Assembly (NCBI GenBank): GCA_010356995.1
Contig: ML996710.1
Location: 30,455-94,454, forward strand
From: Trichodelitschia bisporula
Lineage: Eukaryota
Direction: 5' to 3'
DNA: 64,000 bases
Both the position numbers and the translations under genes were made by a program. Of the stretch, positions 35,960 to 56,425 are shown piece by piece (position 1 is the stretch's first letter; the number at the start of each line of letters is the position of its first letter). The notes below the pieces were generated by a model, which was not told the origin of the DNA, made no database searches, and saw only the letters and a list, made by a program, of their open reading frames with translations.

Positions 35960-36918
35960 TCAAGCCGTCCCAACCTGCGCCAGCTTCGGGTTAACCTTGC
36001 CCAACCCACCACACTCAACACCACCCCCCTCCGCCGTCTGCAGAATGCTCGTGGACGCACTGCTCCCATCGCAGTACGTAACCCAGCCATCAAGACTCAT
36101 AAGCTTGGTGATAGTCGAAAAGGCCTTGTTGGCGCAGTTCTTGCGCAGCGTGCCCGAGCTAACGCTCCGGCTCGACACATACTCGACATGGTACACCGGC
36201 TTGCCGAACCCGGCGTACGCCTCGCAGTCGCCCGAGTTCTCGACACACTGCTCGTTGACGGCAAACTGGACCGTGTTGGTCACCGACGGGATGATCTCAA
36301 TCGCATTCTTCAGCCCCATCGCCAGGTTGTACTTCGCCGCCTCCGCGGCCAGCCGCCGCGTGTACGAGATGGCGTCGTTGGTCGTAAGGCTGAAGCCGCC
36401 GCCATTCTGGTTGCCATACCCGTCTGAAAGTGTCAGCTGACAGTCAACCCGGGCAAAGGGCCTCACATACCCATGTTATCCGGGTCAATCGCATCGCAGC
36501 CCTTGTCAGACGCAAGCTTGATTCGCTTGGCCATAATGTCAAACACGCTCTGGCTGCGGACGTTCAACCAACGCTCGCCCGGCCACTCCGGCAAGCAAGC
36601 GCCCTTGTCCGACTCCTGGAAGCTGCTCCAGTCCGGCCGCCAGTCCTCGCTGGTGCCCGCGCTGAAGTAGCACATGACCTTGATGCCCTGCGACTTGAGC
36701 ATCGAGATGGTGCTCGCCGGCGTGTTGAACAGGTCGATGTCGAAGATGTCGACGTTGGAGGGCGCGAGCGCCGCGGATGGATTCACCGTCCCCGACAGAA
36801 TCATTTGGATGCTCGACCCGACGTCGGGCTGCCACATGGCCTCCGGGACATCGGGGGTGTCGGGTGTCGGGGCGGCGAGCGCAAGGCTAGCGAGGAAAAG
36901 AGCTGCGAGGGGTGACAT
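35960..36918 (-). CDS. GH114 endo-alpha-1,4-polygalactosaminidase (Ega3-like); exons 36918-36471 and 36423-35960
   Basis: Signal peptide; DIDLF, CYFSAGTSEDWRPD, WPGERWL, spliced DPDNMDGY, GLKNA, AVNEQC and KPVYHVEY motifs; 47-nt intron. Confidence 0.93.
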
Positions 36919-38009
36919 GATTGGCTGAGGAGGTGAGGCTGGAATGCTGATGCAAATGTAGGGATTTAGATGAGTTTGTGGCAGATAGATTGCGGCCGCG
37001 GGCTAGACCTCTTATACTTCGTCGAACCACCCACAGCCAGTGCACCGCTCGGCCGCGCTGGTGCAAGGCACGAGGCACGCAGGCAACGATAACGCGTTAA
37101 TCCCGCAGGCACGAGTCGCTGCACCGCCGCAACGAAAGCAGCAGGTCGGCGCGCGCATCAAACGTGCGTGCGGACGGAAGACTGCTCATGGCTAGACCGG
37201 GATTCTCCCGCCCCAAAGCTTGTTCAGACCCCACGCGGGATCCATGAGCGGGTCATGTCTCGGCCTGCCTGGGGGGGAAGGTGGTGGCCGCCTGCCGCAT
37301 CGGGCCGGGTCTGGGCGCCGCCCGTTGGAGCGATTCTGGATGCGGGAAGAAGCCCACTAGGCGGAAGAGGCTATCGCGGGACGAGGATCATGGAGGATGA
37401 GTGGTGGCGTATTTTTGTGATTCGTGGAATAGTCGCACACGACTCGTTGCGCTGTGATAGATGAGCCTGTGAAGGCCCTTCTCGTTCGCTTTGCGACTGC
37501 GCTTGTACGCTTGCACTCTTCTTGTTGTTCGCTTCGGGTGGGAAACGTAGATCACCCGCCGCCGCACATGCGGGCCGGGAGCTGTGCGGTGCGACCCGAG
37601 ACAAGGTCATCGTTGTGCGCGGGCCACATGAGGGAGAATCGCCACGGGCAATAGTCTGCTTCGGTTAGGTTGCCTTTGGGCAGCAATGGACCGGCGCGTT
37701 GGTTGCGGGTTTATCAAGGCACGATGTCATAAAGACTATTGAGTCGTGTTGTTGCCTTCTCTTTTGATGTCACAGGCGCGACTCGTTGTGATAACGTTGA
37801 TATGAATACTTAAGATATCGGGTATCGTCGGTCGGGGACTTGGTCCGGACCGAAAACAAGCATAGCCAAGTATGGTTTATCCAGAGCGCGCTTTTAAGAG
37901 TCCAGTTTTGTCCCTTTGATACGTCTAGCACCTGCGAGCCTTGCCGTGGGTGGAATGAATGGAGAGGAAGAAATGGAGACTGTGCGTAACTTCCTCACGT
38001 GCTGGTGAA

Positions 38010-39999: not shown

Positions 40000-40686
40000 T
40001 TAGTGTCGTGCTGACCTTGGTCCAGCACCGCGGCTGCGGCTGCGACCGCCCCGGTACTGCCTTTCGTACCCGACCGATCCGCTGCTGCGACTACCGCTGC
40101 TCAGGTACCGGTTGTCCCTCTCTTTCTCCAGTTCTTCAGCCATCTCTATTGCTTTGACTCTCTTCATTGCCTCGGCCCTCTTCATTGCCTCAGCCCTCTC
40201 CCTTGCTTCAGCCCTCTTCATTTCGTCCGCCTCTTCGGCCATCTCAATTGTTTTAGAAACCGTCCCCTGCGCGCGTTGCACCGCCATTCTCACATGGGGA
40301 ATCAGGTATTCGATCGTGTTGTACTGACCATCTACCACCATGTTTAAGCTGCTTAGGGCGAAGTTGCCCGCATATACCTTCGCATACTCGACGTTTTGGA
40401 TCTGCTTCACCAGCTCTTCCGCGGTATGAAGATGATGCATGCCTGGTTCGAGGTGGGCATGAAGGGCGTACTGCCATGGAAGTATGCGACAACCTCGTCC
40501 ATTTACGTTTGTGGCGGAAGTGGTGCCGTCGTACGGGGTATAGAGCTTGTACAAGGTGCGGTATACGGCATTGAGATTTTCGTGCAATTTCGAAAGAGAA
40601 GCGCGCCTTTTTCCAATTTCGGTCTCGATGAGGAGGAGAGCATTGTCCGCGGATCTGAGGGAATCGGCAACAGTGTTGAGAGACAT
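40000..40686 (-). CDS. Hypothetical helical protein, 228 aa, with EAMKRA repeats and an Arg/Ser/Gly-rich tail
   Basis: Intact ORF with a paralogous copy 1.7 kb away that shares a similar 5' leader. Confidence 0.72.
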   Translation of the reverse strand: MSLNTVADSLRSADNALLLIETEIGKRRASLSKLHENLNAVYRTLYKLYTPYDGTTSATNVNGRGCRILPWQYALHAHLEPGMHHLHTAEELVKQIQNVEYAKVYAGNFALSSLNMVVDGQYNTIEYLIPHVRMAVQRAQGTVSKTIEMAEEADEMKRAEARERAEAMKRAEAMKRVKAIEMAEELEKERDNRYLSSGSRSSGSVGYERQYRGGRSRSRGAGPRSARH

Positions 40687-42000
40687 GGTGAGAGGGTGTC
40701 AGTGATGAGAGAGAGCAGATAATGAAGAGTGAAAAGATGGTAAGTATGATTTGATGTTGAGACCGGGTGAGCAGCTGGTGTTGATACTGTAAGCCAACGG
40801 CGACGACAGCTCGGCCTTTATCCCCAAGACCATGCAAGGTACAGTCGGCGAGCGTCAGCAAGCGGCGAACGCATTTTACTTTTCTTATTAGGAGATCATC
40901 GCACTTCCTGCCGCGGGTGCCGATTCGATGGCCAAAAACGGTGGCCGCGAGCAAGTTACCTAGACGCCTCAGCCTGATCAGGGATGCCGCGAAATCTCAG
41001 CTCCGATTGCAGGGGGGCAGGCCTCCAGAAACTAAGGACCCAATCGCGGCGGCAACGTGCCGGCAGGGCCTCTAACTGCAGGTTAGCGAAAAGAGAGGAG
41101 GCAGCCGGAAGGCACCCGAGTCGGCGAGCCAAATGCGTCGATGCCTCAAAGAAGTCCGCCGGCACTACCCAGAACACACACTGCGGAACAAGTCATCCCC
41201 ATTCAACTCGGAGTCTCTGTTTATCGTCGTCCAGCCCATTCGGTGTCTTCCACGTGCGAATCCTCCGATTCCTCTTCAAGTTCGTGGACGTGGGCTGTCG
41301 GAACTGGAATTTATACTGCGATCCTGGACTCCGTGGCCGGTGCTCCCTCGGGTAAGTGAAGGCGGATCTGAACTTCTGCGAGCTAAATCTTGTTCTTTCA
41401 TCGCTTTCGAGTCGGCTCGAGTACCGGTTGAAGACGTATTCCAGCCGTCATTTGGAGTACAGTAGAGATTTTTGGACCTCAACGCACTCGTGGCGATGCT
41501 GACAGAAAAGGAATGGAGCTGAAGTCGCAAGCTCAATGCAGCGCGTGGCGATGGCTTTATCTAAGGGAACCTCAGAGCACCCGGTCAACTCACTCACAAA
41601 AGTGAGGCGTGAACCGGGCCTTGTCGGACGCATCGAGCCAGATTAATGAGGCGTTTGTAAGGCGGATGCGGCCCCAACAAACCTACACTGCACCGTCGGC
41701 CAGGTCTACTGGCCACAGTCTCATGGAAAGCGACGTTGAGGAAGCGAGAAATTAGACATTCGTATTGATCTCATGTACGCCGACAACACAAACGCCGCCT
41801 GATGTCCAGCCTTAGAGCACCCAGTATGAAAAGCCCAAGCAAAGGTGAGGTACCGATAAACACGGGACCAGCCGCACGTCAAAGCCATTCATGCTTTCCT
41901 CTCACACCAAATGGTAGGCGAGGCGCTGACCTCGTAATCACCCCGCGAGAGCTATAACATCGTCAGCAACGTCTCCAGCCAGCGAACTCGGAAGACCATA

Positions 42001-42390
42001 CTAAAAAGAAACTTCATTGATATCATCAGCAGCCAGTTCGAGCCGGTGCAGCGTGTCGCAAAGAGCGGTCAGCGCATCGCGCACCTTCAACAACCCGTCC
42101 ATTTCGAAACCGCGCCCATTGCGGCATACGCCCAACATGGTACGTCGGAGGTCTTCGCAGCGCGTGATCGCGCTCTTCATCACTGCTATTGCCTCGACAC
42201 TGTGCTTCTGCACGCCCGTCTCTTGGATATGCGCCGTATACTGCATCAGGACCTCGGCCAGTGTCGTCGAGATCTCATCGACGGAGATTTTGAGCGATTG
42301 GAGGTTTTCCGCGGCCTTGGTGTCCCAGTCGCAGAGACCGTAGAACTCGCGGTAGACATCGGAGAGGATTTCGTAGATTTGGCTGAGCAT
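42001..42390 (-). CDS. Array member L6, small helical protein (~129 aa), most diverged copy
   Basis: N-terminus MLSQIYEILSD resembles MLSQFANILDE of L4; C-terminal LCDTLHRLE resembles FWDAIFRLE/LWDAIQRLD of L3 and L2. Confidence 0.65.
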   Translation of the reverse strand: MLSQIYEILSDVYREFYGLCDWDTKAAENLQSLKISVDEISTTLAEVLMQYTAHIQETGVQKHSVEAIAVMKSAITRCEDLRRTMLGVCRNGRGFEMDGLLKVRDALTALCDTLHRLELAADDINEVSF

Positions 42391-43049
42391 TTGGGACGAT
42401 ATGGAGAGAGACCAGAGCGGGTGGGTCGTTGAGACGGGGAGATGGACTGCTATTGAAGCTCTTGTGGACCCCTTGGACCTTACCACAGCCCCCACAAGAA
42501 GGTGGGTGTGGCGGAGCTTGGGTTAAGAGAAACACGATTGAAAGTTTAAATAGTCCACGCAAGGCACTTTCTTATCGTGGAGCGATGGGTCTGCGACGAT
42601 GATCCGACCACAACCAGCGATATATGAATGCTCAAAATTGGTCTGCGAGCACAACCAAATGTGGAACCAGCTTCTAACAATTTTATCAACTTTCTTTGCG
42701 TTGCTGGGAGCTGAGATTCTTTCCAGAGTTCATGGCGTGTATCATCCTTTCTTTCCATTGAGTGATGGCCTTGCATGCGCGACGTCGGGGACCCCGCGTG
42801 GGGGGGAAGTCATGACTGCTTCCCCTGCCGATTTGCCCCAGGTGTGCGGCTATCACTTTTTACGCAGCAAGTGGACGTGACGCATCCTTCAACGAGTGGA
42901 ATATCTCAAGGACGGAGCATAAATCGAAATAAATGGCCATACATAATCCCTTCATCGCTCATACTCGCAGACATCCCTTTCTTGTCCTTCCCAATCCTGA
43001 CAAGCTCCTCCAGATCCAGCTTGAGTAGCTCAATGCACCCCGGAAACGG

Positions 43050-43316
43050 TTAAAGGGTTCTGAGGTCGAGAGCATGCTCGAGATACCGAAGCCTGCGGAT
43101 AATTTTTTGAAGCGGTTCGATTATGGCATGCTTCAACTTCTCTGTGCCTGCTGCGTCCGGTCGTTCCATGAAATCACTGTAGAAGTCCTGGCAAAGCATG
43201 TGAAGTTCCGCAGCCCTTTCGGGGTGTCCCCATTCGGCCTTATCAAAACAGTCCTCAATGAGGGCTTCATTCTCGTCGAGAAATGTCGCAACGATTTTTC
43301 TCATCTCGGATGACAT
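43050..43316 (-). CDS. Array member L5, small helical protein (88 aa)
   Basis: Contains LCQDFYSDFMER, matching the array motif. Confidence 0.6.
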   Translation of the reverse strand: MSSEMRKIVATFLDENEALIEDCFDKAEWGHPERAAELHMLCQDFYSDFMERPDAAGTEKLKHAIIEPLQKIIRRLRYLEHALDLRTL

Positions 43317-43436
43317 TTTGGATTATGCTGATGTTGACGGGGAGTGAAAGAAAGGTTGAAGTCGGACTGAAATACACAATGCATCGAAGCAACCGGCATC
43401 AAAAGCGGGGTCAATCATGTCTAGACGGGGGCGGCG

Positions 43437-43577
43437 TGTTGAATTTGTGGCGGCAACCTGGGGTGGCTGGAGTGGAGCCAGGAGACAGGGGTCGTCTCCC
43501 GGCGATGTATATAGTCAGCTCACTTCCTACTGCTAGTCGGCAAAGCAATTCAGTCAAGTTCACACTTCATTTTAACA
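43437..43577 (+). mobile_element. Solo LTR (141 bp) with 5-bp TSD CGGCG
   Basis: Ends TGTTGAA...TTTAACA; CGGCG at 43432-43436 and 43578-43582; internal TATATA; second copy in reverse orientation at 54049-54190. Confidence 0.88.
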
Positions 43578-43793
43578 CGGCGTCAGTAGGAAACTAAGCG
43601 CAGCAGCAAACTCACAAACGCATAGGCGGCAAGATGAAGCGTACCTCCTTCCCAGCATAATTCCTACCACTCATGCCTCATTTTGAGGCCGCCTTTCTCT
43701 AGCCTTCTCAACTTCTACTACTAGCTCATTCCACGCATCCCAAAGCCTAAAAGCAGACTCGCGCGGATACGGGACGTTCGGACCGCCTACAAC

Positions 43794-44093
43794 TCAGTGA
43801 TCGAGGATGTTGTACACAGCTTGTAAAAGCAGCTGACACTGTTCCGCCGCTATCTTGACCAACATGAGCATCTCGGTGCTTTGCTTTCCTCTCTGGATTG
43901 CTTCCGGTTGGGTGTTCTTGTTCAAATCTTCGTAGAAATCGACGGGGATTGTGCGTAGTTTCTCGTATAGATCGAGGTGCCTTTGTACCAAGAGACTTTC
44001 ATCCAGTTCCTCTCTGGCCTTGATGGACTCGGCCCTGATTTTGCAGATTTCGTCCAGGATATTAGCAAACTGGCTCAGCATTTCTGGTGTCAT
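43794..44093 (-). CDS. Array member L4 (~99 aa)
   Basis: IPVDFYEDLNKNTQPEAIQRGKQSTEML aligns with L3 and L2. Confidence 0.65.
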   Translation of the reverse strand: MTPEMLSQFANILDEICKIRAESIKAREELDESLLVQRHLDLYEKLRTIPVDFYEDLNKNTQPEAIQRGKQSTEMLMLVKIAAEQCQLLLQAVYNILDH

Positions 44094-44303
44094 GTCGGAG
44101 GAGGGTGCCGAAAGATGACGTACTGTGTAGTGAGGGTGGTTGCGGGCGAAGCTTCTTGACCGAGGAAGGCCCAAGGGGCCGCTCGCTAATGTGGCATCGC
44201 TAATGTCACAGCACAGTCACACCGTTACCGCCATCCGGTCACTCATACATTGATCCTCACATTATTGCTGTCTCCACATGTCTGCCAACTGACACCCACC
44301 GGC

Positions 44304-44705
44304 TTACAGCACCTTTTGAAGCCGCGTCTTTTTATCCTTTTCAACATCCTCCTCTAGCCTAAATATCGCATCCCAAAACGCGCGAGCAGTTCTCGCTCTG
44401 AGTAGATCCGTCGCACAGTCTGTTTCGAGCCCCTTTTTGAGAACGTCGGAGAAGCACACGCTCCGCTCGATTATAGCCTCGAGCAACGTGAGCATCTCGG
44501 ACCTGTGATTTCTTCTATCGATCCCCTCCGATTGGTCGTTCTTTCGAAAGTCTTCGAAGAAATCGGTGAAAATTGTGTGCAGTTCATCGAGCAGTTCTCG
44601 GCCTTTATCCGCGGAGAGTGGTGTCGAGCCGTCATATACCCTTTCATCCCATTCGGTTATGATGGTCCGGGCTTCGAGAAGGACTTCTGTGAGCTGATCG
44701 AACAT
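44304..44705 (-). CDS. Array member L3 (133 aa)
   Basis: DELHTIFTDFFEDFRKNDQSEGIDRRNHRSEML; upstream region shares gtgacatccggcta-like sequence with L2. Confidence 0.72.
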   Translation of the reverse strand: MFDQLTEVLLEARTIITEWDERVYDGSTPLSADKGRELLDELHTIFTDFFEDFRKNDQSEGIDRRNHRSEMLTLLEAIIERSVCFSDVLKKGLETDCATDLLRARTARAFWDAIFRLEEDVEKDKKTRLQKVL

Positions 44706-45027
44706 TTGCGATGATATGTCGAGAGGAGTGCCGAATGAAGCGTATTGAGGATAGCTGTCGGCGCGACTTCATACGTACTGCGCAAAGGCAGCTTCTTGAT
44801 GCGGGATCGTTCAGTTACGGCACAAGCCCCGCGTTATCATCCCGTGACATCCGGCTAGTGTCGCCGCGAGCGCGGCCGACATCTACCGCACAGAACTGAT
44901 GTGGTTGCGAGTCCGCGATGATACCGAGTTACGTGATGCGAGCCAGCATTGCGGAGATAGATCTGGGAGACTCTTTTCTTCAACAACAATTCAGTCATTC
45001 ATGCCTTTCCCAAAACACTGCTATGTA

Positions 45028-45444
45028 TCACCATATCCCCCAACAGGAACCGGATTCCACTTCCTTTTGAGATCCCCCTTTTCTGTCCTTTGCAACTTCA
45101 TCCAGCCTCTGTATCGCATCCCAAAGTCGGTGGTGAGTCCTCCTTATCATCCCCGAGAACGCACAGTCTACAGTTCCCTCCGGCTCCTTTTTGAGGACTT
45201 CGTTCATGTCCCGGCACCGTGCGACCACAACGTTGATTGACGCAATGATCTCGGACCTCTGCTTTCCCCTGTCAATTGCATCCGGTGGGTTGTCGTTGAA
45301 GTCTTCTAGGAAATCGGTGAGGACTGTCTGTAGTTCATCGACTATTATGTAGATATCGCTCAAAACGAGCTGTATCCGTGCTGCCCTCCATTTAGTCGTG
45401 ATGTAGGTGGCTTCGCGGAGGACGTCGTCAAGCAGGTCGGACAT
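45028..45444 (-). CDS. Array member L2 (~138 aa)
   Basis: DELQTVLTDFLEDFNDNPPDAIDRGKQRSEII...LWDAIQRLDE, clearly paralogous to L3. Confidence 0.72.
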   Translation of the reverse strand: MSDLLDDVLREATYITTKWRAARIQLVLSDIYIIVDELQTVLTDFLEDFNDNPPDAIDRGKQRSEIIASINVVVARCRDMNEVLKKEPEGTVDCAFSGMIRRTHHRLWDAIQRLDEVAKDRKGGSQKEVESGSCWGIW

Positions 45445-45759
45445 TTCTGGCGATTTGTGGAAGGCGATTGCCGAGAGGAAGGGTTTTGAAGATGGCTGTC
45501 GGTGAGGCGGCTTGATATGGCGTCGTTGGGGCACAGCACAGCCTACCGTTATCGTCACCTGACATCCGGCTAACGTCGCTGTAGGCGGTGATGCCGAACA
45601 GTAGAACTAAACAGAGAAGGCAACTATGCTGGTAGGTAGTCCAAGATGGAAAGTCAGTTGCGGCTCATAACCTTATTTTGTTCCATAAAAAACCCATTGC
45701 ATGAAAGACTCATCATCAACCTAATATAGGTTCTTTGCGCCGGACTCCATCACCGGAAG

Positions 45760-46239
45760 CTAATGCCGATCCCGTCTCGAAGACTTTACCGCCCTCTCGC
45801 CTTCCCGTTTGAACTCTGCACGCTTGGTATCGTGTACAGCTATGTAAAACTGGATGAAATACACGGTTTCGGGGCTGCTATACTCTACCCACGCCTTCTT
45901 CTTCTCCTTAACCGGAGCACACTGGGACGCTTTTGCCTTCTTAAGCTCATCCCAGTATAGCTTACCCCAGACTGTTAGTTCCCTAAGGTAACTAGAAAGC
46001 CGTCCCCACGCTGCGCGGTCGTGAGTCAGCTTCGGCGGGTTCTTGCGAAAGTCGTGGTTGAAGTCCGAGACGTTACTTGTTCGTTCACGCAGTAACGCCT
46101 CTTTCCTGCCGTCTACGGCGTCCTCGTCGACGCAGGAGTTGATTTCACTGGAATGGGCTATGTAGTCTTTGATGAACGCGTCGATGCTGTTCATTGTTGC
46201 TTGCACCGATGGGTTGGGCGTGGAGTTGTCGGGTGGCAT
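45760..46239 (-). CDS. Array member L1 (159 aa)
   Basis: NVSDFNHDFRKNPP motif links the left-arm (DFRKN, NPP) and right-arm (N-I/V-x-DF) copies. Confidence 0.65.
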   Translation of the reverse strand: MPPDNSTPNPSVQATMNSIDAFIKDYIAHSSEINSCVDEDAVDGRKEALLRERTSNVSDFNHDFRKNPPKLTHDRAAWGRLSSYLRELTVWGKLYWDELKKAKASQCAPVKEKKKAWVEYSSPETVYFIQFYIAVHDTKRAEFKREGERAVKSSRRDRH

Positions 46240-46922
46240 GGTGCCCGCAGGTGGCGCGAGATCGCGGGAAATCGACGATATCGAAGGGAGCTTGCTTTAG
46301 GGTAAGGCTGTCGAGGGCGGGGCTCTGGAAAAGAAGTCAGTCTGGAGATATTGTCGCGCGACAGACTGTCGTCGGAGGTGATGTTGAAGACGAGGTCATC
46401 GCCGCACAGCTCAGAACTCAGCGTGTGCGGCGGGACCCTGGGCAGCCTAGAGAAGTTGTAGCCGTCCTGGCTAGGAGTCTTTGTGGAAGGGTCGGTAGCG
46501 ATATTTTTCAGGTTGGCCTTGCCCAAAAGGCTGCCCGACTCGTGAGGGGTAACAATGACATCAGTTCAATCGTCCGCGTCTCGCGATGCTTGCTGGCATA
46601 GCTACATGCTCCGCCTTCCCCTGCCGATAGGCGCAGAAAAATGCGGTTGAGCATCTGAGGCCCCCGAACTATTCGTGGCCGCCCTTCCCCAAGGCTACAG
46701 TCCGAGTACGGAGTACTGTACCACGCAGCTGAGGCCGGGAGGCAGCCACGAGTGTTTCGGGCCGTCCCTTGACTCGCGGACGGGCTTGATGCCTTGCTTG
46801 CTTTAGTTTCTCATGCTCCGAACCGCGTGCGATTTTTGACCGGCCGGTCCGATCAGTGCCTCCCCTGCTTCTACTGCGTACCACTTCTTCATTTCGCTGC
46901 TTCGTCGCTTCGACCAGCCGCC

Positions 46923-47285
46923 ATGCCATCACCGGAGGCCTTGGAAGCGCCCCAGCTACAGAAAATGAATCTCAAAGACATACACTTTCTGGTACTTGAA
47001 CTGTGCGGAGACGATAGGCAAAATGCTAATACCGCGAAGAGTGAAGTCTTCGGCAATGTCTTAGACTTCTGCGACGGTATACTTGCTGAGGGGGATGCCG
47101 CGGTTACCTATAAAATGCTAAGGGAGTTGGCTTTAGAGTCTTTGGGGGACCTCGCCGGTCTGCGCGAAAACACCGAGCAGATCATCTCGGGAATCACCCG
47201 TTTAAATATAGGCATGGACCTGAAGATATGTATTGCGCGTAACCGGTTCGATGAGTGGATCAACAACAACTTGAGGCCAACTTAG
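46923..47285 (+). CDS. Array member R1; probable intron 46992-47039 (48 nt, in frame)
   Basis: LKDIHFL|SEVFGNVLDFCDG; intron GTACTT...GCTAAT...AAG; stop lies inside the conserved TTAGGAAGCCTAC block. Confidence 0.72.
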   Translation: MPSPEALEAPQLQKMNLKDIHFLVLELCGDDRQNANTAKSEVFGNVLDFCDGILAEGDAAVTYKMLRELALESLGDLAGLRENTEQIISGITRLNIGMDLKICIARNRFDEWINNNLRPT

Positions 47286-47517
47286 GAAGCCTACTCAACT
47301 GTTATATCGCATGATCCGTGCTGTGATCTTGCAAGTCCATCTGCGATAACGACTCAAGCAACAGCCAAAGGCTACAGGGAAAACCGTACTACTGGTGATA
47401 CCCCGCTCTCTTTAATCGGCTTCCTAACGCGCCTTTTGAGCAGCTAGCCCGATCTTTGCCTCCGTCTTTGCACAGCCGCTGCATCACTTCGTCACTTCGC
47501 CACTTTTGCCTATCAAG

Positions 47518-47853
47518 ATGCCGTCGTCGGAAGCAAACCAGCAACTCCAGACGCTTTTCAAGGATTTCGAGTTCCTGGTATTGGATGCACGAGAGGACGT
47601 TGCCAACAGCGCTGACATTGTAAAGGATGAACTCTGCATCAACATTTCAGACGCCTTCGACGATGTCAATGTTGAGGGGGTTTCAGCGCTTTTACGAGAT
47701 GTTACTCTTCTCCGCGACGAGATCCAGAAGATCATTTCGTTTGCACGTTTAAAGCATATCAGGGAGACAAAGCTATGTTTTTCGAAGGAGATGATGAGGG
47801 ACATTCATAAAAATGTACTCGAGCTTAATAAGAAGTTATCGACATTAGCATGA
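47518..47853 (+). CDS. Array member R2; probable intron 47578-47625 (48 nt, in frame)
   Basis: FKDFEFL|DELCINISDAFDD...KLCFSKE; intron GTATTG...GCTGAC...AAG. Confidence 0.72.
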   Translation: MPSSEANQQLQTLFKDFEFLVLDAREDVANSADIVKDELCINISDAFDDVNVEGVSALLRDVTLLRDEIQKIISFARLKHIRETKLCFSKEMMRDIHKNVLELNKKLSTLA

Positions 47854-48074
47854 GGCAGTTTAGGAAGCCTATTCCGTTGTTATGTCGTCGTGATCCTTTG
47901 CCGTGTCCTTCAAGTCCATCTAAAACAGAGGCTCAAGCAACGGCTAAGGGCTACCCGAAAGGCTTGTCAGTGCCCCGCTCATTTTAATGCGGGGCATCTC
48001 GACGCCTTTTGAGCGGCTAGTTCTAACCCAATCTACACCCCGTTTCCACCGCTTCGTCGCTTCTGCCTATCGAC

Positions 48075-48457
48075 ATGCCATCGCATACTTCGGAAACTCT
48101 CCAGCAACTTCAAACACTTCTTAAAGATATCGAGTTTCAGGTACTAGATATGTGCGGAGAAGATAGGGAAAAGCTTACACTGCGAAGGATGAGCTGTTCA
48201 GAAACGCCGTCGATCTCTACGACGACCTTACTGGGGATATGAGGTCGGATGAAGCGCTGATTTATGCGAAGCTTAGAGGGGCAGTTTTGATGCACCTAAG
48301 GGAGAACGTCTGTCAACGGGAGTACATCCAGGAGCTTATTTCGAGCTTTCATAACGCGGACGTCAAGTTATGTTTTTCGCGAGAGGGGATGGTGAGATAT
48401 CATACTGAGATGCTCGAATTCAACGAGTTTATGGAGAACAATCTGGGGCCAACTTAG
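48075..48457 (+). CDS. Array member R3 (111 aa); exons 48075-48140 and 48188-48457
   Basis: Removing the 47-nt GTACTA...GCTTAC...AAG segment joins LKDIEFQ to DELFRNAVDLYDD in frame, giving an intact ORF. Confidence 0.72.
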
Positions 48458-48656
48458 GAATCCTACTTACTGTTACCACACAATATCGCCATGACCTGGC
48501 CCTGTGGTGCATATGCATCTGAAATAGCCGCTCAAACGACGGCCAAGGGCCACCGGGGAAAGGCTTATTAGAGCAATACCCTGCACCTTTTGATCGACCA
48601 GCCCAGTTCTCGTCTGATCCCCTGTTCCTACGTCCTCATCACTTCTTCCCATCGGC

Positions 48657-49048
48657 TTGCCATCTCCCGGCACCTCGGAAACGCTGCAGCGACTTGAAGC
48701 GATTTTAAAGGACATCGACCTTCAGGTACCAGATTTGGAAGGAGATGACTGAGAAAAGCTAGTACCGCGAAGGAAGAACTGTGCGCCAATATTATAGATT
48801 TCTGCGACGACACAAAGGATTTTAAAAGGGATGAGGCAGCTGCTTATGAGAAGCTACGGGAAGGAATCTTAACGAAGCTAAAAAGCGTCGCCGTCATACG
48901 TGAGGGCATCCAGGAGTTCATCTCGGACGCTCGTTCCGGTGATGCTGGGGACGTGAAGCCATGTGTTTCGCAAGATACAGTGATGGGATTTCACAAAGCT
49001 GTGGTCGAGCTTCAGGAGTTCGTCGATAATGATATGAGGCTAAGTTAG
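48657..49048 (+). pseudogene. Array member R4: open after splicing 48726-48772, but starts with TTG
   Basis: atcggcTTGccatc versus atcgacATGccatc in paralogues; exon 2 (EELCANIIDFCDD...KPCVSQD) is uninterrupted. Confidence 0.62.
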
Positions 49049-49242
49049 GAAGCCTACATGCTGTTATCATGCAGTATATCGTCATAACATTGCTATGTGG
49101 TGCATATGTATCTGAAATAGCGCCTAAATAATGGCTATTGGCCACCGTGAAAGGCTTATTAATACCCTACGCCGTTTGCTCGACTAGCTCAGCCTTCAAT
49201 ATACATCCCGTTTCCACCTCCTCGTCGCTTCTGCATCTCGAC

Positions 49243-49628
49243 ATGTCATCGACCAGTGTTTCAGAATCGCACCAGCGACTTTAAGCGGTTCTGAAGGACA
49301 TAAAGCTCCAGGTACCAGACATGTGCGGAGACTATAGGGAAAGCGCTAACGCCGCGAAAGGATGAACTATGCGCCAACGCCTTGGAATTTCTTGGACGAC
49401 ATTAAGGGAGATATTAATAGGGATAACGTAGTTGCTTACGAGGGGCATAAGAGAAAAGTTTTAGCGAAGCTAAAAGATTTCGCCCTCATCCGCGAGGCCA
49501 TTTTGGAGATGATCTCGAGTGATGGCGGGGACAGGAAGCTATGCCTTTCGCAGGACGAAGCAATGAAGTTTCACAATCTGGTAGTTGGGCTCAAGGAGTG
49601 GGTCGATAATGAAATGATATCAGCTTAG
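49243..49628 (+). pseudogene. Array member R5, pseudogene
   Basis: TAA at codon 14, where paralogues have CAA/GAA, and a +1 frameshift near 49385-49392; intron 49312-49360. Confidence 0.75.
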
Positions 49629-49810
49629 GAAGCCTACTCGCTGTTGTCGTTATGATTTTGCCCGGTCGTAGATGTGCATCTGATGAAGCGCTTTCAACGG
49701 CTAAGGGTTACTGGGAAAGGCTTATTAATGCCCTACGGCGCTTAATCGACGAGCTTAGCCTTCCTCTTACACATCCCACTTCCACCTCCTCGTCGCTTCT
49801 GCCTATCGAC

Positions 49811-50218
49811 ATGCCATCGACCGGTACTTTAGAAACGATCCGGCAAATCCAAGCGGCTGTGAAGGACATAGACGTTCAGGTACCAGATACGAGTATATGC
49901 GGAGACGACGGGAAAAAGCTAACACCGAAAAGGATGAACAATGCGCTATTATCTTGGACTTCTTCGACGATACTTTCGGGGATAGCAAGGGGAATGATAC
50001 AGTTACTTATCAGAAACTAAGAGTTTTTTTTTTTTTCAGAGTACCGAAGAGAGGTCGTCGACGTTCGTAATCAGTTCCTGGGTACTATCTCGCTCTACGC
50101 CGATTTGAGGGATCGCGTGTACGAGGACTCGAAGATATGTTTTTCGCAAGGTACAGCGAGGAAATTTCGCAGTTGTGTGAGCATTTTCAGTGCATTCATC
50201 GATATTCTAATAAAATGA
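49811..50218 (+). pseudogene. Array member R6, frameshifted at a T13 tract
   Basis: Intron 49880-49932; a T12 tract at 50024-50036 would restore the frame through ...SKICFSQG... to TGA at 50218. Confidence 0.65.
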
Positions 50219-50511
50219 GGCTAGCTTGGGAAGCCTAGTCGCTGTCATCGTTATGACTATTGCCCGTCGTGCGTGTGCATCTGATGAAGCGTTTAAGCAA
50301 CGATATGGCTATGGGCTGGGCGAAAAGATTATACGCCCCTCATTAAAATGTTGTAGCCTGGTTTCACTCGGATTTATACTAAAAAAAGCAGAGACTATGT
50401 GGGGCTGCGGCCATCACCTTTAGGCCCCACTTGCTTTAAGGCCGGGTACTCCCGCAACTTTAATCGGTTAGCCCCTCCGTTTCTGCTACTTCCTCACTTC
50501 AGCACATCACG

Positions 50512-50905
50512 ATGGCATCGTCCGATACCTGGGCGGAAACTCAGCAACATGTCCGCACGATACTTGAAGACATAGACCTTTTAGTACTAGACGCGTACTC
50601 AAATGATCGAGAAAACGCTAACACGACGAAGGTAGAACTCCTAAGCAATATGTCAGACTGCTGCGACGATGCTTTGAATGTGGGAGATTTCAACCAGAAG
50701 CATAGGGATGAAGTCGCAGTGGTGTGTACCGGAGATGGAGATGATGCGTCAGAGTATCCGGATGACCGCCTTGGGTATAGTCCGGGAAGGTGCAGGCAAG
50801 GACGAGAAGACGCATGTTTCCAAGTTTTTCGTGAGCGAGATGAAGAAGTTTCACGACAAAGTTTATGAGTTAAACGACAGTATGAGGAATCCGAAACCTT
50901 CTTAG
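50512..50905 (+). pseudogene. Array member R7, frameshift near 50719-50728
   Basis: LEDIDLL|VELLSNMSDCCDD in one frame; the paralogous C-terminus (EMKKFHDKVYELND) and stop in TTAGGAAG are in another; intron 50584-50631. Confidence 0.68.
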
Positions 50906-51212
50906 GAAGGCCATTTCATGAGGTCTTCTAGAGGAAGGATATTTCGCTGTTGTGACCGCGCACCAGTCGTTCCGCCTAACCTCCCTGTACGAGTACTCCT
51001 ATCGGGGCGTTCCCAGCCTTAGCCTAAGACGTCTTGTATGTCGATCTGAGATGGCGCTTAAGTAACGGCGAAGGGCCGTCTAGAAGGCTTATATCTATGC
51101 TTCGCTCCCTCTAATTAGGTACTCCCGCGACTTCATCGGCCAGCCTAGCCCCAGCCCGCATCTCTAATCACGTCTCCGCCGCCCCGCCGCTTCGCGACTT
51201 CCCCCCAACAAC

Positions 51213-51695
51213 ACGCCAGAGTCCGTCCTCACGCCCGAAACGCTCCAAAACCTTCAAGCCGCCCTCAAAGACCTCGAAACCCTAGTAAACCCCCCCTTAC
51301 GAGGTATCCAGCGAACGAGGGGCAAACCGCTAACCCCGCAAAAGAACGAACTCTGCGCCAACATCGCCGACTGGTGCGAGGACGTCAAGGGAGCCCCAAA
51401 CATCAATGAGCCCGCACGGGAGAATGTATTAGCGATTCTGAAGGCCGGCGCTACACTGCTTCAGAGTGCTACGGAGAGGACGGCGGAGATAATCCGGGAG
51501 AAGGGTAGCGCGAAGGTGAAGGTTTGTTTCCGGCGAGAGACGTTGGAGGAGTTGGATGCTGCCGTGAGGATGCTTACTGAAGTTACGGAGACGTCGATGA
51601 AACGACGATTTTGGGGAGGAATGTTGAGCTGTTCTGCTTTTAGCATCTGCATGTGCATTGGTCGCTTCATTTATTCGTCATGGTCGCCGTCCTAA
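51213..51695 (+). pseudogene. Array member R8: open frame, but ACG at the start position; probable intron 51285-51344
   Basis: ACG-PESVLTPETLQNLQAALKDLETL|NELCANIADWCEDV...VKVCFRRE; missing from the ORF track. Confidence 0.62.
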
Positions 51696-52009
51696 GCATC
51701 TTTACTTTTGCGGCGTCTTGCATCTACCTAATAGCCTTCACGGAGTGGCTGGAGGCTACCAAGCAAATGTGATGACCCAGCCCCCGATAGTCGCTGCCTG
51801 AATCCCCGGCGAAAGCATAGGAAAACCCGACTACGACTTTTGGCCTCGAAGTAATAATTTTTAGGGCTATAAGATGAGGCTCATGAATACCCCGCACGCC
51901 GCGCTCTCTCCAAATACCGCGCACTGCCCCAACTTCTCATCGGCCAGCCTGATACCCACCTGCATCTCCCATGTCGCCCTTCCACCGCCTAGACGTCCCA
52001 CCTGTCGAA

Positions 52010-52399
52010 ATGTCATCATCCGGTATCCCGGCCGAAACCCTCCTACAACTCCGCGAGCTTGTCAAGGACGTGGACTCAATATTCGGTTATGATGATGCTG
52101 ATGGGGAGGCCATCCTCGCACTACTGGATGAAGCACGATGCAATATCTTAGACTTCTACAATGATTTCAAGCGGAATTCCACGGTTACCAATGACAAAAT
52201 GAGGGGGGAGATACTTGGGCTTCTCAGAGCCGCCTGTCGAGAGTTGGACATCATTGAGCGTGCCATGTTGAATGAAGAGGCATGGGCTTTCTGCATGGGG
52301 GCCAAGGTACTTGAGGAGAAGGAAAAAGCGCGCCAGGGATTTTTCAACGCTATTGAGCAGCTCGCCGAGATGAGCGGGTATAAATTGGTGAACCTTTAG
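52010..52399 (+). CDS. Array member R9 (129 aa), apparently intronless
   Basis: ETLLQLRELVKDVD matches the right arm; NILDFYNDFKRN...RGEIL and FFNAIEQL match the left arm. Confidence 0.72.
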   Translation: MSSSGIPAETLLQLRELVKDVDSIFGYDDADGEAILALLDEARCNILDFYNDFKRNSTVTNDKMRGEILGLLRAACRELDIIERAMLNEEAWAFCMGAKVLEEKEKARQGFFNAIEQLAEMSGYKLVNL

Positions 52400-52974
52400 T
52401 AGTCCGTTTCGCTGGTATATCTCCAACATCCACCACGCACTTTTCATTCCGTTCATTTAACCTTATGATAGCCGACATCCCCATCCTCTTCGTCCCGTGG
52501 CGTCTGGCCTGTCCATCTGCGACAGCGCTTGAGCAACACCCAAAGGCACCTCGAACACGCCGCAGCCACCATCGTCCTCAAAACCGCCCAAGCAAGACGG
52601 GCACAATTTTCGGCCAGCACTTTGCACGTCAGCAGCTCGGCCCCGCTGCGCAATACTCGGGACGCGGGCGTGTCGGCGCCATCCCGCCGCTGGCCGAGTC
52701 GGATAGTGCATCAGGCCTGGCAGGTTCTAGCCCGCCCGGCCCTCGACCTGCGCTTGCCACCGGACGCTGTCGATGTGGCCGCCATGGCTGATTTCAGACC
52801 GTCTACATCGCGGCGGACATCTGAGCGGTATACACTTTAGGGGCATCGCGACCGGCCCCGTGCACGCTGCGATGCCGTCAGAGCAGACAGACACAACGAC
52901 ATTGATAAAGCTCGTTATAAAACCCAGGACCCCTTCCCCCCCCTCCCCCCCGCAACCCCCAGCCACCCCCCAAC

Positions 52975-53740
52975 CTACCGCCCCCAAAACCCCTCAAACA
53001 CCCTCACCCTCGTCCCCCCAACCCGCTCCCCCACACGCCAAACCCGCCCATCCGCACCCCGCGCTGTCACCCCTTCCCCTACCAAAGCCTCCTCACTCCC
53101 AACCTCAATCCCCACCTCCCGCCCCCGGATCTCTCCACCATGCACGACACTCAACTCATACACCTCCGGCGCAGCGCGCATGCGGCCCTCCACGCTCATG
53201 AAGGATACTAGCGCGTTTACTTCGGCCGTGGCGACGTGTGCTGAGAAGGCGGCTGAGGTGGCGTATCTGGGCTGTTAGTTGGGGATGCGGNNNNNNNNNN
53301 NNNNNNNNNNNNNNNNNNNNNNNNNNNNNNNNNNNNNNNNNNNNNNNNNNNNNNNNNNNNNNNNNNNNNNNNNNNNNNNNNNNNNNNNNNNNGGGGCGGG
53401 CGAGGGGAGAATGGCAAGGAGGAGGAAGGGAGGGAAGGAAGGAAGGGAAGGCATGAGGACGGGAAAGAGACATACTCCTCCACCATCCACACCCCCGTCT
53501 CGTCCTCCAGCGGCACGCAGGCGGCATACCGCGTCACGCCCGGCTCGTGGGCTTGAGCGTAGCACGCGACGGCGGCCGCGAGGGTTAGGAGCTGTGGGTG
53601 GGCTGGTTAGCTGGCTGGTCTGGGGAGGGTGGAAGGGGTGGCCGGGGGGGGGGGGGGGGGGGGGGGGGGGGAGAGGAGGGGCTCACCTCGTCCCGCGCGG
53701 CGCGGCTGGTCGTGGGCAGGTAGGCGATTATGAAGGGCAT
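52975..53740 (-). CDS. ABM/dimeric alpha-beta barrel protein; exons 53740-53687, 53591-53476, 53266-52975 (C-terminus uncertain)
   Basis: Spliced MPFIIAYLPTTSRAARDELLTLAAAVACYAQAHEPGVTRYAACVPLEDETGVWMVEEYATSAAFSAHVAT... fits the EPG...Y...E.Y....A...H pattern; canonical splice sites. Confidence 0.75.
53291..53392. other. Assembly gap (N run) inside intron 2 of the ABM gene
   Basis: 102 N bases flanked by G-rich sequence. Confidence 0.99.
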
Positions 53741-54048
53741 GATGGATACTGTGGGGGAGTGGATGATGGGGGAGGGGTTATATGCCCGCCTGCCCGCTCG
53801 CTCGGGTACGGTTCTCCGGGGGGTGGGGCTTATCTAGGGTGGATGGTGCGATGCGTGCTGGGCGGGGTGGGTTAGGGTTAGGGTTGGGACGAGGGTGAGG
53901 ATGGGGCTGAGGGTGTGGGCTGAGTGGAGACGGCATGGCGAGGGCGGAGGGGCATTTGGAAAGTCGTGGTGCCGACTGGGATAGTCTTTGCTGCTTGGGA
54001 GGGGAGGGTGTTGGGGGAAAGTGGCCATGACCTTTTGGAGGGGGGAAG

Positions 54049-54190
54049 TGTTAAAATGAAGTGTGAACATGATAGAGTTGCTTAATTGACCAGCAGTGGG
54101 AAGTGAGCTGGCTATATATCTCGCCAGGAGACGACCCCTGTATCCTGGCTCCACTGCAGCCACCCCCAGGTTGCCGCCACAAATTCAACA
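54049..54190 (-). mobile_element. Solo LTR (142 bp) with 5-bp TSD GGAAG
   Basis: Reverse complement of 43437-43577 (16 substitutions and 1 indel by hand count); GGAAG at 54044-54048 and 54191-54195. Confidence 0.88.
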
Positions 54191-55194
54191 GGAAGCGACT
54201 TGGAGGAAGGCCCAGTGGCTGCCCCAGAGGTTATGTCGCCTCCCCACCGGCTCTTGCTGGTACACAGAGACTACCGGCGAGGGGGACTTATCTTTCGGAT
54301 AGCCCGCGGCTTTTGGATGTGTCGGGTAACCCCGCCCCAAAGTCGCTACTTCGTACTCAGCGCACGCCGTACCCAGACACGGCTCCAACTTTCCAGAGTG
54401 GTGCAGCGACCTTTTTAATGCCCTTAGACGCGAGGGAGCGCCGTTCTGCACTCCGCGATACCTGCCATCGTTCCCATCTCCAAAGGCTCAGTCGTCAGAC
54501 CATGCCCGCAGGATTTACCCGAGCAAAAGTAAGCCCGTTTTAACGCGCAATCCCGCCGCAACGCGCGAACAAAGACGCTGCGTACGAGGCGCATTCAGCC
54601 GGAAAGCGGCATTCCGCCGACAAGGCGTGTTTGCATGAGTGGCGCACAGCTTGTTTTGAGGTCTACATACCGTAACAGGACGGCAGCCACGGATTCACAC
54701 GGCGAGTGGAATGGGTTGACGCTGGTGGGTACCGTTACCTAGCAACGGGGGGCGCATATCGCACCGGTGGATGGGGAGGCGATGGTGGTGGTTTGGCTGC
54801 GGAGCTGGGTAGGCTGTAGTAACTTGGGCGTAATGTTGTGCTGCCTGCATGCGAGGGGTGATGGTCGGACTGCAGGCGGATAGGCGGAATGTACTACCTT
54901 TGAGGTTCTTGATGACCGGCGCCGATGTCGGGCATGCGTTTTTGCGAGTTATAGTGGCGGAACGCGCGGCATACTCGGGCACCAGAGCGCCAGTCTCGCA
55001 GGACGGGGCAAAAGAAACGAGCGCTGCTGCTTCCGCCCGTTGTGAGTATCGGGTGAGGAGAGGGAGGTGCGGTTGATGTGGGAGGCGGTTGGCGGCGATG
55101 CTGCGAGGGTTGGGCCCGACACGTTCCTCCCTATGGGATATGCGCGGCGACTTGGAGGCGTGGTGACATATGGTGACTACTGCCTCCTTGCACG

Positions 55195-55313
55195 CTTTGC
55201 TACTCACTTTGCTACTCACTTTGCTACTCACTTTGCTACTCACTTTGCTACTCACTTTGCTACTCACTTTGCTGCTCACTTTGCTGCTCACTTTGCTGCT
55301 TACTTCGCTACTC
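55195..55313. repeat. 12-bp minisatellite (ctttgctactca), about 10 units
   Basis: Directly visible; degenerates toward the 3' end. Confidence 0.95.
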
Positions 55314-56425
55314 GCCTTGCTCGTCCCGGGCGGTAGTGGAACCACGCGGCGCGCGAGATGGCTCGCACTGCATGAGGCGGCAGCGCCGAGAGGGAGGGGG
55401 GGAAGCGAACGACAGGTGCAGTTCCAACGTGAGAAGGTGAAGAGCAGGACTATGGAAGGAAGAGGAAGAAGGAGGAGGAGGAGGTACGTTGTTCGCCTCG
55501 CTGAGAGGGGGCGAGGAAGAGACGATCGGGATCGCTGCGGTGACGGGCGGAGGATAAGAAATCGGGTTGCTTGCGGTGCCTGAAGACGCCTCTGCGTCTT
55601 CTTTTCCTCCTCCAGCTTGTCCGCTGCATCATCGTTCCTCATACCTCCCCTCGTGCAGAGCTATTTTATCCCAACTGATCTATCGCTACGTTTAGGGATC
55701 CTGTGCTGCTGAGTTTATAGACTAGGAGAAACCGCCTATCTTACTTCGTTTATCCAGCAGCATATTTCAGCGCCCCCGCAACGCATTCCTGTTGCGAGGC
55801 CTGAGCGTTGTTACCCCGCAGCTGAGCTGTCGCTAGCTTTGTGGTGGCTTTCACACATCCGCCTGCAAGAGACGAGCTTCCGTTTGCTTCGCTCCTCCTC
55901 TCCTGCTCACAAATAACCGGTGTCCGGATGCCGGGGAGCGTTCTGACGCGTGCCCACTAATTGCGCACCCGCGTACAAGACTCACCGCCCGCTCGCTGAG
56001 CTGCCGCGTCAAACGCCGAGCACACACACACGTAAGCCGCCTGGCTCGTCCTTCTCACTCCCCTCCCTCTCCCTCCCCGCCCAAAGGACCGACAAACGCA
56101 ACAAAGTTTCTCCCAAGCAAACGCACTTTGTCTCGTAGCCGGCTGGCGTCCATCACCAATATACACAAACGTCAAAGCCCAACTCAAACCACCCTCAAAG
56201 ACACAAGCTCCGCCTGTCCCCCCCCCCCCCACGACAAAACTCCTCTCAAACCCAGACAACCTCCCCTCTGTCTCCCCCGCAATCTCCCAAAACTTCAATC
56301 AACACACTCTTCTCCTCCTGTCAACCTGCTAGCTTAAAAGCTCTACTCTCCCCGCAAGGCCTTTTTCAAGCTACGCTTCCGAGCATCACACTCGCCTTCA
56401 CACCCTTTTCAACAGTACGACAGAC

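Follow-up and report, generated by a model that had tools for sequence, protein, structure and literature searches.

A cluster of small paralogous genes lies at positions 42001-52399 of a 64,000-nucleotide stretch of DNA (the window, to which all coordinates refer) from contig ML996710.1 of Trichodelitschia bisporula, a fungus of the Dothideomycetes (Phaeotrichales). The genes are arranged in two arms that diverge from a common centre. The array consists of 14 demonstrable units, L1-L5 on the minus strand and R1-R9 on the plus strand, and a doubtful unit, L6 (Table 1). New here are a transcribed, spliced orphan family and a polymorphism among its paralogues, in which the same segment is either coding or an intron.

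A preliminary description of this DNA had listed 15 open reading frames (ORFs) or gene units and had quoted 13 short motifs from their products. ORF listing, tblastn of the ORFs against the window and frame-by-frame translation place all 15 at the coordinates given there, and all 13 motifs are found in the translations. The centre, described as about 680 base pairs (bp), measures 683 bp between the start codons of L1 and R1.

Table 1. Units of the array and the centre between the arms; the introns of R1-R8 are those predicted from splice signals (aa, amino acids; nt, nucleotides; HMM, hidden Markov model)
Unit	Position	Strand	Motif	Intron	Remarks
L6	42001-42390	-	no DFxxDF		129-aa acidic helical ORF; under an RNA contig
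L5	43050-43316	-	DFYSDF		truncated member, 88 aa; early end relative to L2 and L3; family HMM E 3.9e-24
L4	43794-44093	-	DFYEDL		99 aa; in-frame stop shortens the member
L3	44304-44705	-	DFFEDF		intact, 133 aa; public annotation P0001
L2	45028-45444	-	DFLEDF		intact, 138 aa; covered by RNA contigs; exact sequence absent from the public protein collection
L1	45760-46239	-	DFNHDF		intact, 159 aa; isoelectric point 9.0; public annotation P0003
Centre	46240-46922				683 bp between the divergent arms
R1	46923-47285	+	DFCDG	46992-47039 (48 nt)	intact, 104 aa spliced
R2	47518-47853	+	DAFDD	47578-47625 (48 nt)	intact, 95 aa spliced
R3	48075-48457	+	DLYDD	48141-48187 (47 nt)	intact once spliced, 111 aa
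R4	48657-49039	+	DFCDD	48726-48772 (47 nt)	TTG in the place of ATG; open frame if the intron is removed
R5	49243-49628	+	NFLDD	49312-49360 (49 nt)	broken but transcribed
R6	49811-50218	+	DFFDD	49880-49932 (53 nt)	broken
R7	50512-50905	+	DCCDD	50584-50631 (48 nt)	broken
R8	~51201-51695	+	DWCED	51285-51344 (60 nt)	divergent, GC-richer; family HMM E 9.6e-28
R9	51971-52399	+	DFYNDF		intact, 142 aa; lacks the right-arm intron

The public protein collection holds only L3, L1 and spliced R1 among the units of the array. Spliced R1 is identical to P0002 (EJ06DRAFT_552046), the public model of which takes out the same 48 nt. Exact look-ups in this collection were negative for L6, L5, L4, L2, R9 (from two candidate starts) and unspliced R2, and 11 of the 14 units seem to have no public annotation.

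Transcription and splicing of the array

RNA contigs from two runs, X1 and X2, cover both arms and contain spliced joints. In the right arm, GT..AG joints were found at seven of the eight introns (R1, R2, R3, R5, R6, R7 and R8), demonstrating that the runs contain cDNA. These joints fall on the introns that were predicted from the 5' and branch sites, a conserved GTA... 5' site and a GCTAAC-like branch site (CTRAY-type) being present in all eight units R1-R8. The R1 joint connects 46990 to 47039 and is of the GT..AG type. The joints of R3 and R7 are present in both runs, and that of R6 is given by one low-depth contig, the shorter side of which is 27 nt long. No joint was seen in R4, where positions 48727-49080 have no contig cover, which is not evidence of silence.

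The apparent frameshift of R3 is an intron, because it coincides with an RNA joint and its removal restores a single ORF of 111 aa. Intact and broken copies are indeed interleaved along the array, as had been noted in the preliminary description, although the "break" then assigned to R3 is a spliced intron and not damage. A further intron was found at R9, where an RNA contig (51910-52413) is joined to 52471. This GT..AG intron of 57 nt (52415-52471, plus strand) is removed 15 nt past the stop codon of R9 in both runs. It belongs either to the 3' untranslated region (UTR) or to a longer transcript extending past 52600.

The contigs of the left arm (42840-43463 over L5, 43550-44136 over L4 and 44234-46373 over L3-L1) are colinear with the genome, so the left-arm genes have no intron. 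One contig, 46569-47818, spans R1 and R2 with both introns removed; another, 44234-46373, spans L3, L2 and L1. Such gene-bridging contigs show that the spacers are transcribed, and they could represent overlapping UTRs or read-through transcripts. At the centre, the contigs of both runs end at 46372/46373 and begin again at 46564/46569. These ends hint, weakly, at a compact bidirectional promoter, which the centre is presumed to be.

The spacer between L5 and L4 has an unusual coverage. The contig depth in the bin 43417-43770 is about 14,000 in X1 and about 3,000 in X2, and many contigs with mutually different loose ends enter at 43434-43439 and leave at 43482/43528. A segment of about 50-95 nt at 43434-43528 seems to be common to other highly expressed transcripts. 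No Rfam match was found in the region 40000-56000.

Relationship of the two arms and search for relatives

The two arms are one family, as the preliminary description had proposed, and the bridge between them is R9. An HMM was built for the left arm (L1-L5) and another for the right arm (R1-R4 and R8, spliced), R9 being included in neither. R9 matches the left-arm HMM with E 2.5e-8 and the right-arm HMM with E 1.1e-7 (Z=1000). Upon aligning the left and right profiles to each other with hhalign, using spliced right-arm sequences, the match was found to be significant (P 7.4e-5); this replaces the weaker value (P 0.026) obtained when L1 was the master sequence and the right-arm ORFs were left unspliced. 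BLASTP links copies inside the arms (L2-L3, 2.75e-16; R3a-R6a, 4.4e-8), and direct BLASTP of the left against the right arm gave no significant match. Among the 998 stop-to-stop ORFs of the window that are 40 aa or longer, the family HMM picked out 16 ORF pieces at E<0.01, all significant matches being confined to 43053-52396. As judged from these comparisons, the pattern of the array is far beyond chance.

The left arm had been described as having six members. This holds for L1-L5, and the membership of L6 is not demonstrable (family HMM, E 0.16; left-arm HMM, E 0.11). The best BLASTP match of L6 is L2, with E 0.42 and 22% identity over 122 aa, in a colinear alignment. L6 is possibly a very divergent member of the family. 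The RNA contig over L6 is 2601 nt long and continues towards an ORF at 40000-40698.

In a maximum-likelihood tree, computed without L6 and without an outgroup and with R5, R6 and R7 read through with X at their breaks, L2-L5 form one clade (93/88) and R1-R8 another (87/83). L1 and R9 are deep single branches. At the nucleotide level, R3-R6 form a continuous tandem repeat with an offset of about 582 bp, spacers included: blastn aligns 48038-49399 to 48620-49970 with 68.6% identity over 1397 nt.

The family could not be assigned to any known one, in agreement with the preliminary description. Pfam gave no family at the gathering cut-off for the 12 proteins searched, the best score being that of L6 to BORCS6 (21.6 bits as against a required 35). 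A profile search of the Protein Data Bank (PDB) at E<=10 gave nothing usable, its best match being a designed repeat protein with E 0.087. With the left-arm/R9 profile as query, HMMER was run exhaustively on 1.84 billion representatives and returned 16 proteins, namely L3 and L1 themselves and 14 others (P0004-P0017), which were rejected as described below. Searches by word matching among 5.8 billion proteins, in which the queries were L3, the right-arm profile and the whole-family profile, returned only the proteins of the array itself. No true homologue was thus found outside the locus, and by these sequence searches the family is an orphan, having no detectable relative elsewhere in the collections covered. 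It is called undescribed here because searches of the literature on T. bisporula, on fungal intronization and on restricted tandem families gave no description of it, the supplements of PMC7082219 lying outside their scope.

The 14 additional proteins are metagenome sequences of 592-1344 aa that match the left-arm/R9 profile with E 3.9e-24 to 8e-4. They obtain these scores because a pattern D-F-Y-x-D-F...P-x-A-[VI] recurs three to eight times in each protein. They are Ser/Asp-repeat proteins in which ...SDFYSDFQSRVPKAV... recurs, and the match to the array family spans only 14-34 residues. When P0005 was compared one to one, hhalign gave a probability of 17% over 34 columns, and BLASTP gave E 0.26 per repeat over 16 residues. 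The match is short and the architecture and composition differ; the resemblance is treated as a coincidence of motif. The repeats are of the kind LSDFYSDFQSRVPKAVATNSQLSDLHSDLRSYL, the N-termini are conserved in five of the six examined, and no convincing Pfam family was found for them. P0004-P0017 are an uncharacterised repeat family in its own right, unrelated to the array.

Predicted fold and the right-arm intron

The products are 95-159 aa long. Most are acidic, with isoelectric points of 4.5-5.3, as had been stated for the array as a whole; L1 is the sole basic copy. The maximum Kyte-Doolittle value in a 19-residue window is 0.18-1.47, none reaching 1.5, and the N-termini are polar, which is a heuristic and not the result of a signal-peptide predictor.

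The helical character ascribed to these proteins in the preliminary description agrees with structure prediction. The AlphaFold2 model of L3, computed from a six-sequence left-arm/R9 alignment, is an up-down four-helix bundle with helices at residues 2-24, 32-55, 62-91 and 97-132 (predicted local distance difference test, pLDDT, 83.9; predicted template modelling score, pTM, 0.76). Spliced R1 is modelled with three helices, at residues 17-38, 41-77 and 90-101 (pLDDT 78.3, pTM 0.55). The DFxxDF motif is situated at the end of helix 2 of the L3 model, and a cysteine at the start of helix 4 is conserved in most copies of both arms. The left-arm copies and R9 would have a common core of three elements: DEL-x(5)-DF-x-x-D where helix 2 ends, a basic position conserved within helix 3, and the cysteine that opens helix 4. 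A prediction of a complex between L3 and spliced R1, run without alignments or controls, scored 0.00 and is uninformative on binding.

Exactly at the site of the right-arm intron, L1-L5 and R9 have coding sequence for the last part of helix 1, the linker and the first part of helix 2. In the family alignment its position coincides with a gap of 21 columns in R1-R8 relative to L1-L5 and R9. The read-through ORFs of R1, R2 and R7, in which the 48 nt are left in, align across the intron segment, and in four of the eight right-arm copies, R1, R2, R7 and R8, the intron keeps the frame and contains no stop. Splicing removes the helix 1-2 linker, which results in a shorter right-arm protein with three predicted helices. 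We infer that a coding segment was intronized on the branch leading to R1-R8, as the alignment suggests; alternatively, with the opposite polarity, de-intronization may have occurred in the other members, the tree having no outgroup. The title of PMC2740785 describes intronization as rare in Cryptococcus. Unlike the known cases, the coding and the intron states occur here side by side at one locus, with RNA support.

Comparison of the models with known structures, using Foldseek and VIA-align for L3 and R1, gave generic bundles. For L3, Foldseek found no match at E<=0.001, with TM scores of up to 0.72 at 5-14% identity. Among the closest superpositions on L3 are de novo designed bundles such as ABLE and domains of the FAT type (p130Cas, GIT1, vinculin tail); 6w6x_A has Z 14.1 (root-mean-square deviation 2.0 over 118 residues), 3t6g_D (p130Cas) Z 12.2 and the vinculin tail 3jbi_V Z 12.3. 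Values of Z up to about 13-14 are usual for helical bundles, and neighbours at Z 12-14 indicate that the predicted fold would share their arrangement, not that it belongs to their families. Natural FAT-type bundles bind helical peptides, which may serve by analogy as a model for how the array proteins work. The ESM Atlas was not helpful: L3 had no usable feature match and generic helical structure neighbours, and the best feature for R9 (0.80, BssR/YliH) lies within the range of shuffled sequences.

Two further known systems resemble the array in part. The N-terminal bundles of HeLo and HET-s and the bundles of MLKL are fungal, helical, devoid of a signal peptide and tied to conflict loci. The array proteins are likewise predicted to be helical and, by the hydropathy heuristic, may lack a signal peptide; they differ in that no Pfam family of the HeLo, HET-s, MLKL or HET type matched any of the 12 proteins at E<=1. 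In the structure search suggested for such bundles in the preliminary description, the top entries were generic or designed bundles, and no HeLo, MLKL or pore-former entry stood out among the matches listed, absence from the list not excluding a family. The other system is Rex1BD. PMC10723143 describes the Schizosaccharomyces pombe protein (C4H3.06) as small, charged and folded into four helices, as a histone binder that connects histone deacetylase (HDAC) and RNA interference (RNAi) at tandem repeats, and as conserved from yeast to humans. L3 is also predicted to be a small, soluble, charged four-helix bundle, whereas the array family is a multi-copy orphan. The Rex1BD structure 8j0h_C was found at rank 26 of the Foldseek matches of L3 (E 0.66, TM 0.60, 6% identity), and no sequence match to Rex1BD was found in Pfam (E<=1) or in the PDB profile search (E<=10).

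Condition of the copies and possible function

Complete frames from ATG to stop are present in L1, L2, L3, R1, R2, R3 and R9, which is seven of the 14 units. R4, with its TTG, and R8, which has a stop-to-stop frame from 51168, are open without an ATG. In L4, homology runs past the in-frame stop to about 43677, as found by tblastn of L2 and L3 (43677/43683). In R5, exon 1 contains a stop and the frame shifts immediately past the intron, leaving an 88-aa ORF from 49362. R6 is shifted at a T-run near 50020, and R7 between its middle and C-terminal parts. The breaks in R5, R6 and R7 have not abolished their transcription or splicing. Tandem units, interleaved pseudogenes and clade-wise expansion are features that the array has in common with lineage-specific families that gain and lose tandem copies.

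The proportion of nonsynonymous differences (pN) is lower than that of synonymous ones (pS) in all 14 pairs compared. Under simulated random substitution at 40%, ORFs of this kind stay open in 0.8-1.9% of trials. The array has no signature of repeat-induced point mutation (RIP) to which the argument from RIP in the preliminary description could be tied; its TpA/ApT is 0.74 and (CpA+TpG)/(ApC+GpT) is 1.17; the rest of the window has 0.67 and 1.22, respectively. RIP is indicated by values above about 0.89 for the first index and below about 1.03 for the second.

The preliminary description had also reported an Argonaute gene some 4 kb past the end of the array, and this was confirmed: it occupies the plus strand from about 56.4 to 59.7 kb and encodes ArgoN, L1, L2 and Piwi domains. 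Its best match is QDE-2 of Neurospora crassa (2.1e-93) and its best human match is argonaute-3 (1.3e-70), an assignment made among solved structures, with SMS-2-type paralogues outside the comparison. The interval between the array and this gene contains the transcribed 3' region of R9, a run of 102 N at 53291-53392 that is an assembly gap or a withheld stretch, and low-complexity sequence (54695-55660 on the minus strand, 55167-55583 on the plus strand) in which one strand specifies (SKVS)n and the opposite strand (LLLT)n. A Gly/Arg-rich frame with GGGGYQGGGG and RGG-type repeats (56333-56863, plus strand) lies upstream of ArgoN and presumably is the N-terminal region of the Argonaute. The proximity of the array to the Argonaute is most likely coincidental; nothing but about 4 kb of distance connects them.

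On the other side of the array, the ORF at 40000-40698 (minus strand) encodes 232 aa. The N-terminal portion of the product is helical, its tail is rich in Arg, Ser and Gly, and it contains an acidic/basic AEAMKR repeat; neither a Pfam family nor the family HMM matches it. Further out, at 35960-37002 (minus strand), is a gene of glycoside hydrolase family 114 (Pfam, E 2e-38) with a hydrophobic N-terminus, which seems to be divided between two frames, probably by an intron.

The array probably represents, though with little more than even confidence, a lineage-restricted tandem family with a changing number of copies, whose products are soluble binding proteins. Local tandem duplication of a unit of about 0.57-0.8 kb would have given rise to the 14 or more small genes of the two arms, which are transcribed outward from the common 683-bp centre. 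The left-arm copies and R9 are predicted to be up-down four-helix bundles, and R1-R8 a shorter three-helix form. Duplication would add copies, and mutations that create a stop, shift the frame or destroy the start codon would remove them; purifying selection would keep about half of the copies open, a statement to be taken with the same reserve as the explanation of which it is part. Most likely, the products would bind other macromolecules stoichiometrically, as adaptors, inhibitors or decoys, since they are devoid of catalytic and cofactor motifs and of membrane segments and occur as numerous diverging paralogues.

Several points weigh against this explanation. The binding role is inferred, with no partner, motif or homologue behind it. 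The evidence for expression is at the level of the transcript, not of translation; it comes from two runs of one sample, which are kept as contigs and whose label as RNA is itself a guess. Five units (L4, L5, R5, R6 and R7) are clearly damaged and two more have no ATG. The pN/pS ratio, computable in 11 pairs, is 0.25-0.73, and these values are rough because dS is saturated. The nucleotide identity of exon 2 is 59-72%, as against 64-89% for the intron and spacers; either the protein sequence is under weak constraint or these figures are uninformative. A faster divergence of exon 2 than of the spacers was considered and dropped, and no conclusion is drawn from the comparison, because the aligner yields 58% even on shuffled sequence. 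The polarity of the intron change is not fixed without an outgroup, and the in-frame, stop-free introns are only suggestive since the copies are related. The exhaustive search used the left-arm/R9 profile, right-arm-like relatives having been sought by word-limited search only. As the searches covered proteins and not the DNA of fungal genomes, unannotated relatives may be present in other fungi, and copies elsewhere in the genome of T. bisporula were sought among its annotated proteins only.

Some of these points would also be expected if the array were a transcribed and spliced tandem repeat of largely functionless young ORFs, either proto-genes or decaying duplicates. The stops or frameshifts in five of the 14 units and the missing start codons in two, the pN/pS values of up to 0.73, coding DNA that is conserved no better than the spacers, the lack of a detectable homologue elsewhere and the public annotation of only three units are all in accord with it. 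However, neutral drift would spare only about 1-2% of such frames, and seven complete ORFs persist. Moreover, pN is below pS in every pair, the protein profiles of the two clades still match significantly, a confident bundle model was obtained from six sequences, and the splice signals are retained in all eight right-arm units. This explanation is regarded as unlikely, although it is the one to be taken most seriously after that of a family of binding proteins.

The remaining explanations assign the proteins a more specific role. The antidote, decoy, non-self-recognition and RNAi roles considered in the preliminary description find no support in the present results. They might be cytoplasmic defence or interference proteins, that is, anti-feedant or anti-competitor binders or toxins in the hyphae, diversifying under pressure from antagonists. 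Defence proteins in the cytoplasm of fungi are typically small and confined to particular lineages, T. bisporula lives on dung, and the array encodes small, multi-copy, lineage-restricted, fast-diverging proteins that, by the hydropathy heuristic, may lack a secretion signal. No similarity to a known lectin, pore-former or protease inhibitor was found in the Pfam, PDB profile and fold searches, however, and no amphipathic membrane segment is predicted. A defence role is regarded as quite improbable. Slightly less probable again is a within-species conflict (poison-antidote, spore killing or allorecognition) in which the arms act on each other. A tandem array that gains and loses copies, the orphan status, the head-to-head layout and the basic L1 among acidic members, next to the common centre, would suit such a system; the proteins, however, do not resemble any known family of drive or incompatibility proteins, including the HeLo/HET families in Pfam at E<=1, they have no membrane segment, and the single RNA sample, of unspecified stage, contains transcripts of the array. 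Very improbable indeed is a role as RNAi or chromatin factors acting with the QDE-2-like Argonaute, for example as charged-bundle binders of histones or of the Argonaute in the manner of Rex1BD. The Argonaute gene is close to the array, PMC10723143 links a four-helix histone binder to HDAC and RNAi, and 8j0h_C does occur in the Foldseek list. There, however, it stands among dozens of unrelated or designed bundles with equal or better scores, it has no counterpart in the Pfam or PDB sequence searches, and other DNA, including the transcribed 3' region of R9 and the assembly gap, separates the array from the Argonaute. A combined version, in which diversifying intracellular helical-bundle binders take part in a conflict (within the species, with antagonists or in silencing beside QDE-2) and the right arm was remodelled from four to three helices by the change of linker to intron, would be about as improbable as the defence role.

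If the array is a lineage-restricted family of binding proteins, it would provide a tractable case of a taxonomically restricted family that is expressed and confidently foldable, with no relatives among 1.84 and 5.8 billion sequences. Its intact, start-less and broken copies would form a natural series in which the gain and loss of genes can be followed in a filamentous ascomycete, at a locus with no RIP footprint. The 11 of 14 units that are apparently unannotated bear on how small genes escape gene calling. With the same segment coding in some paralogues and a spliced intron in others, the origin of an intron and its effect on a protein fold would become testable within a single family.

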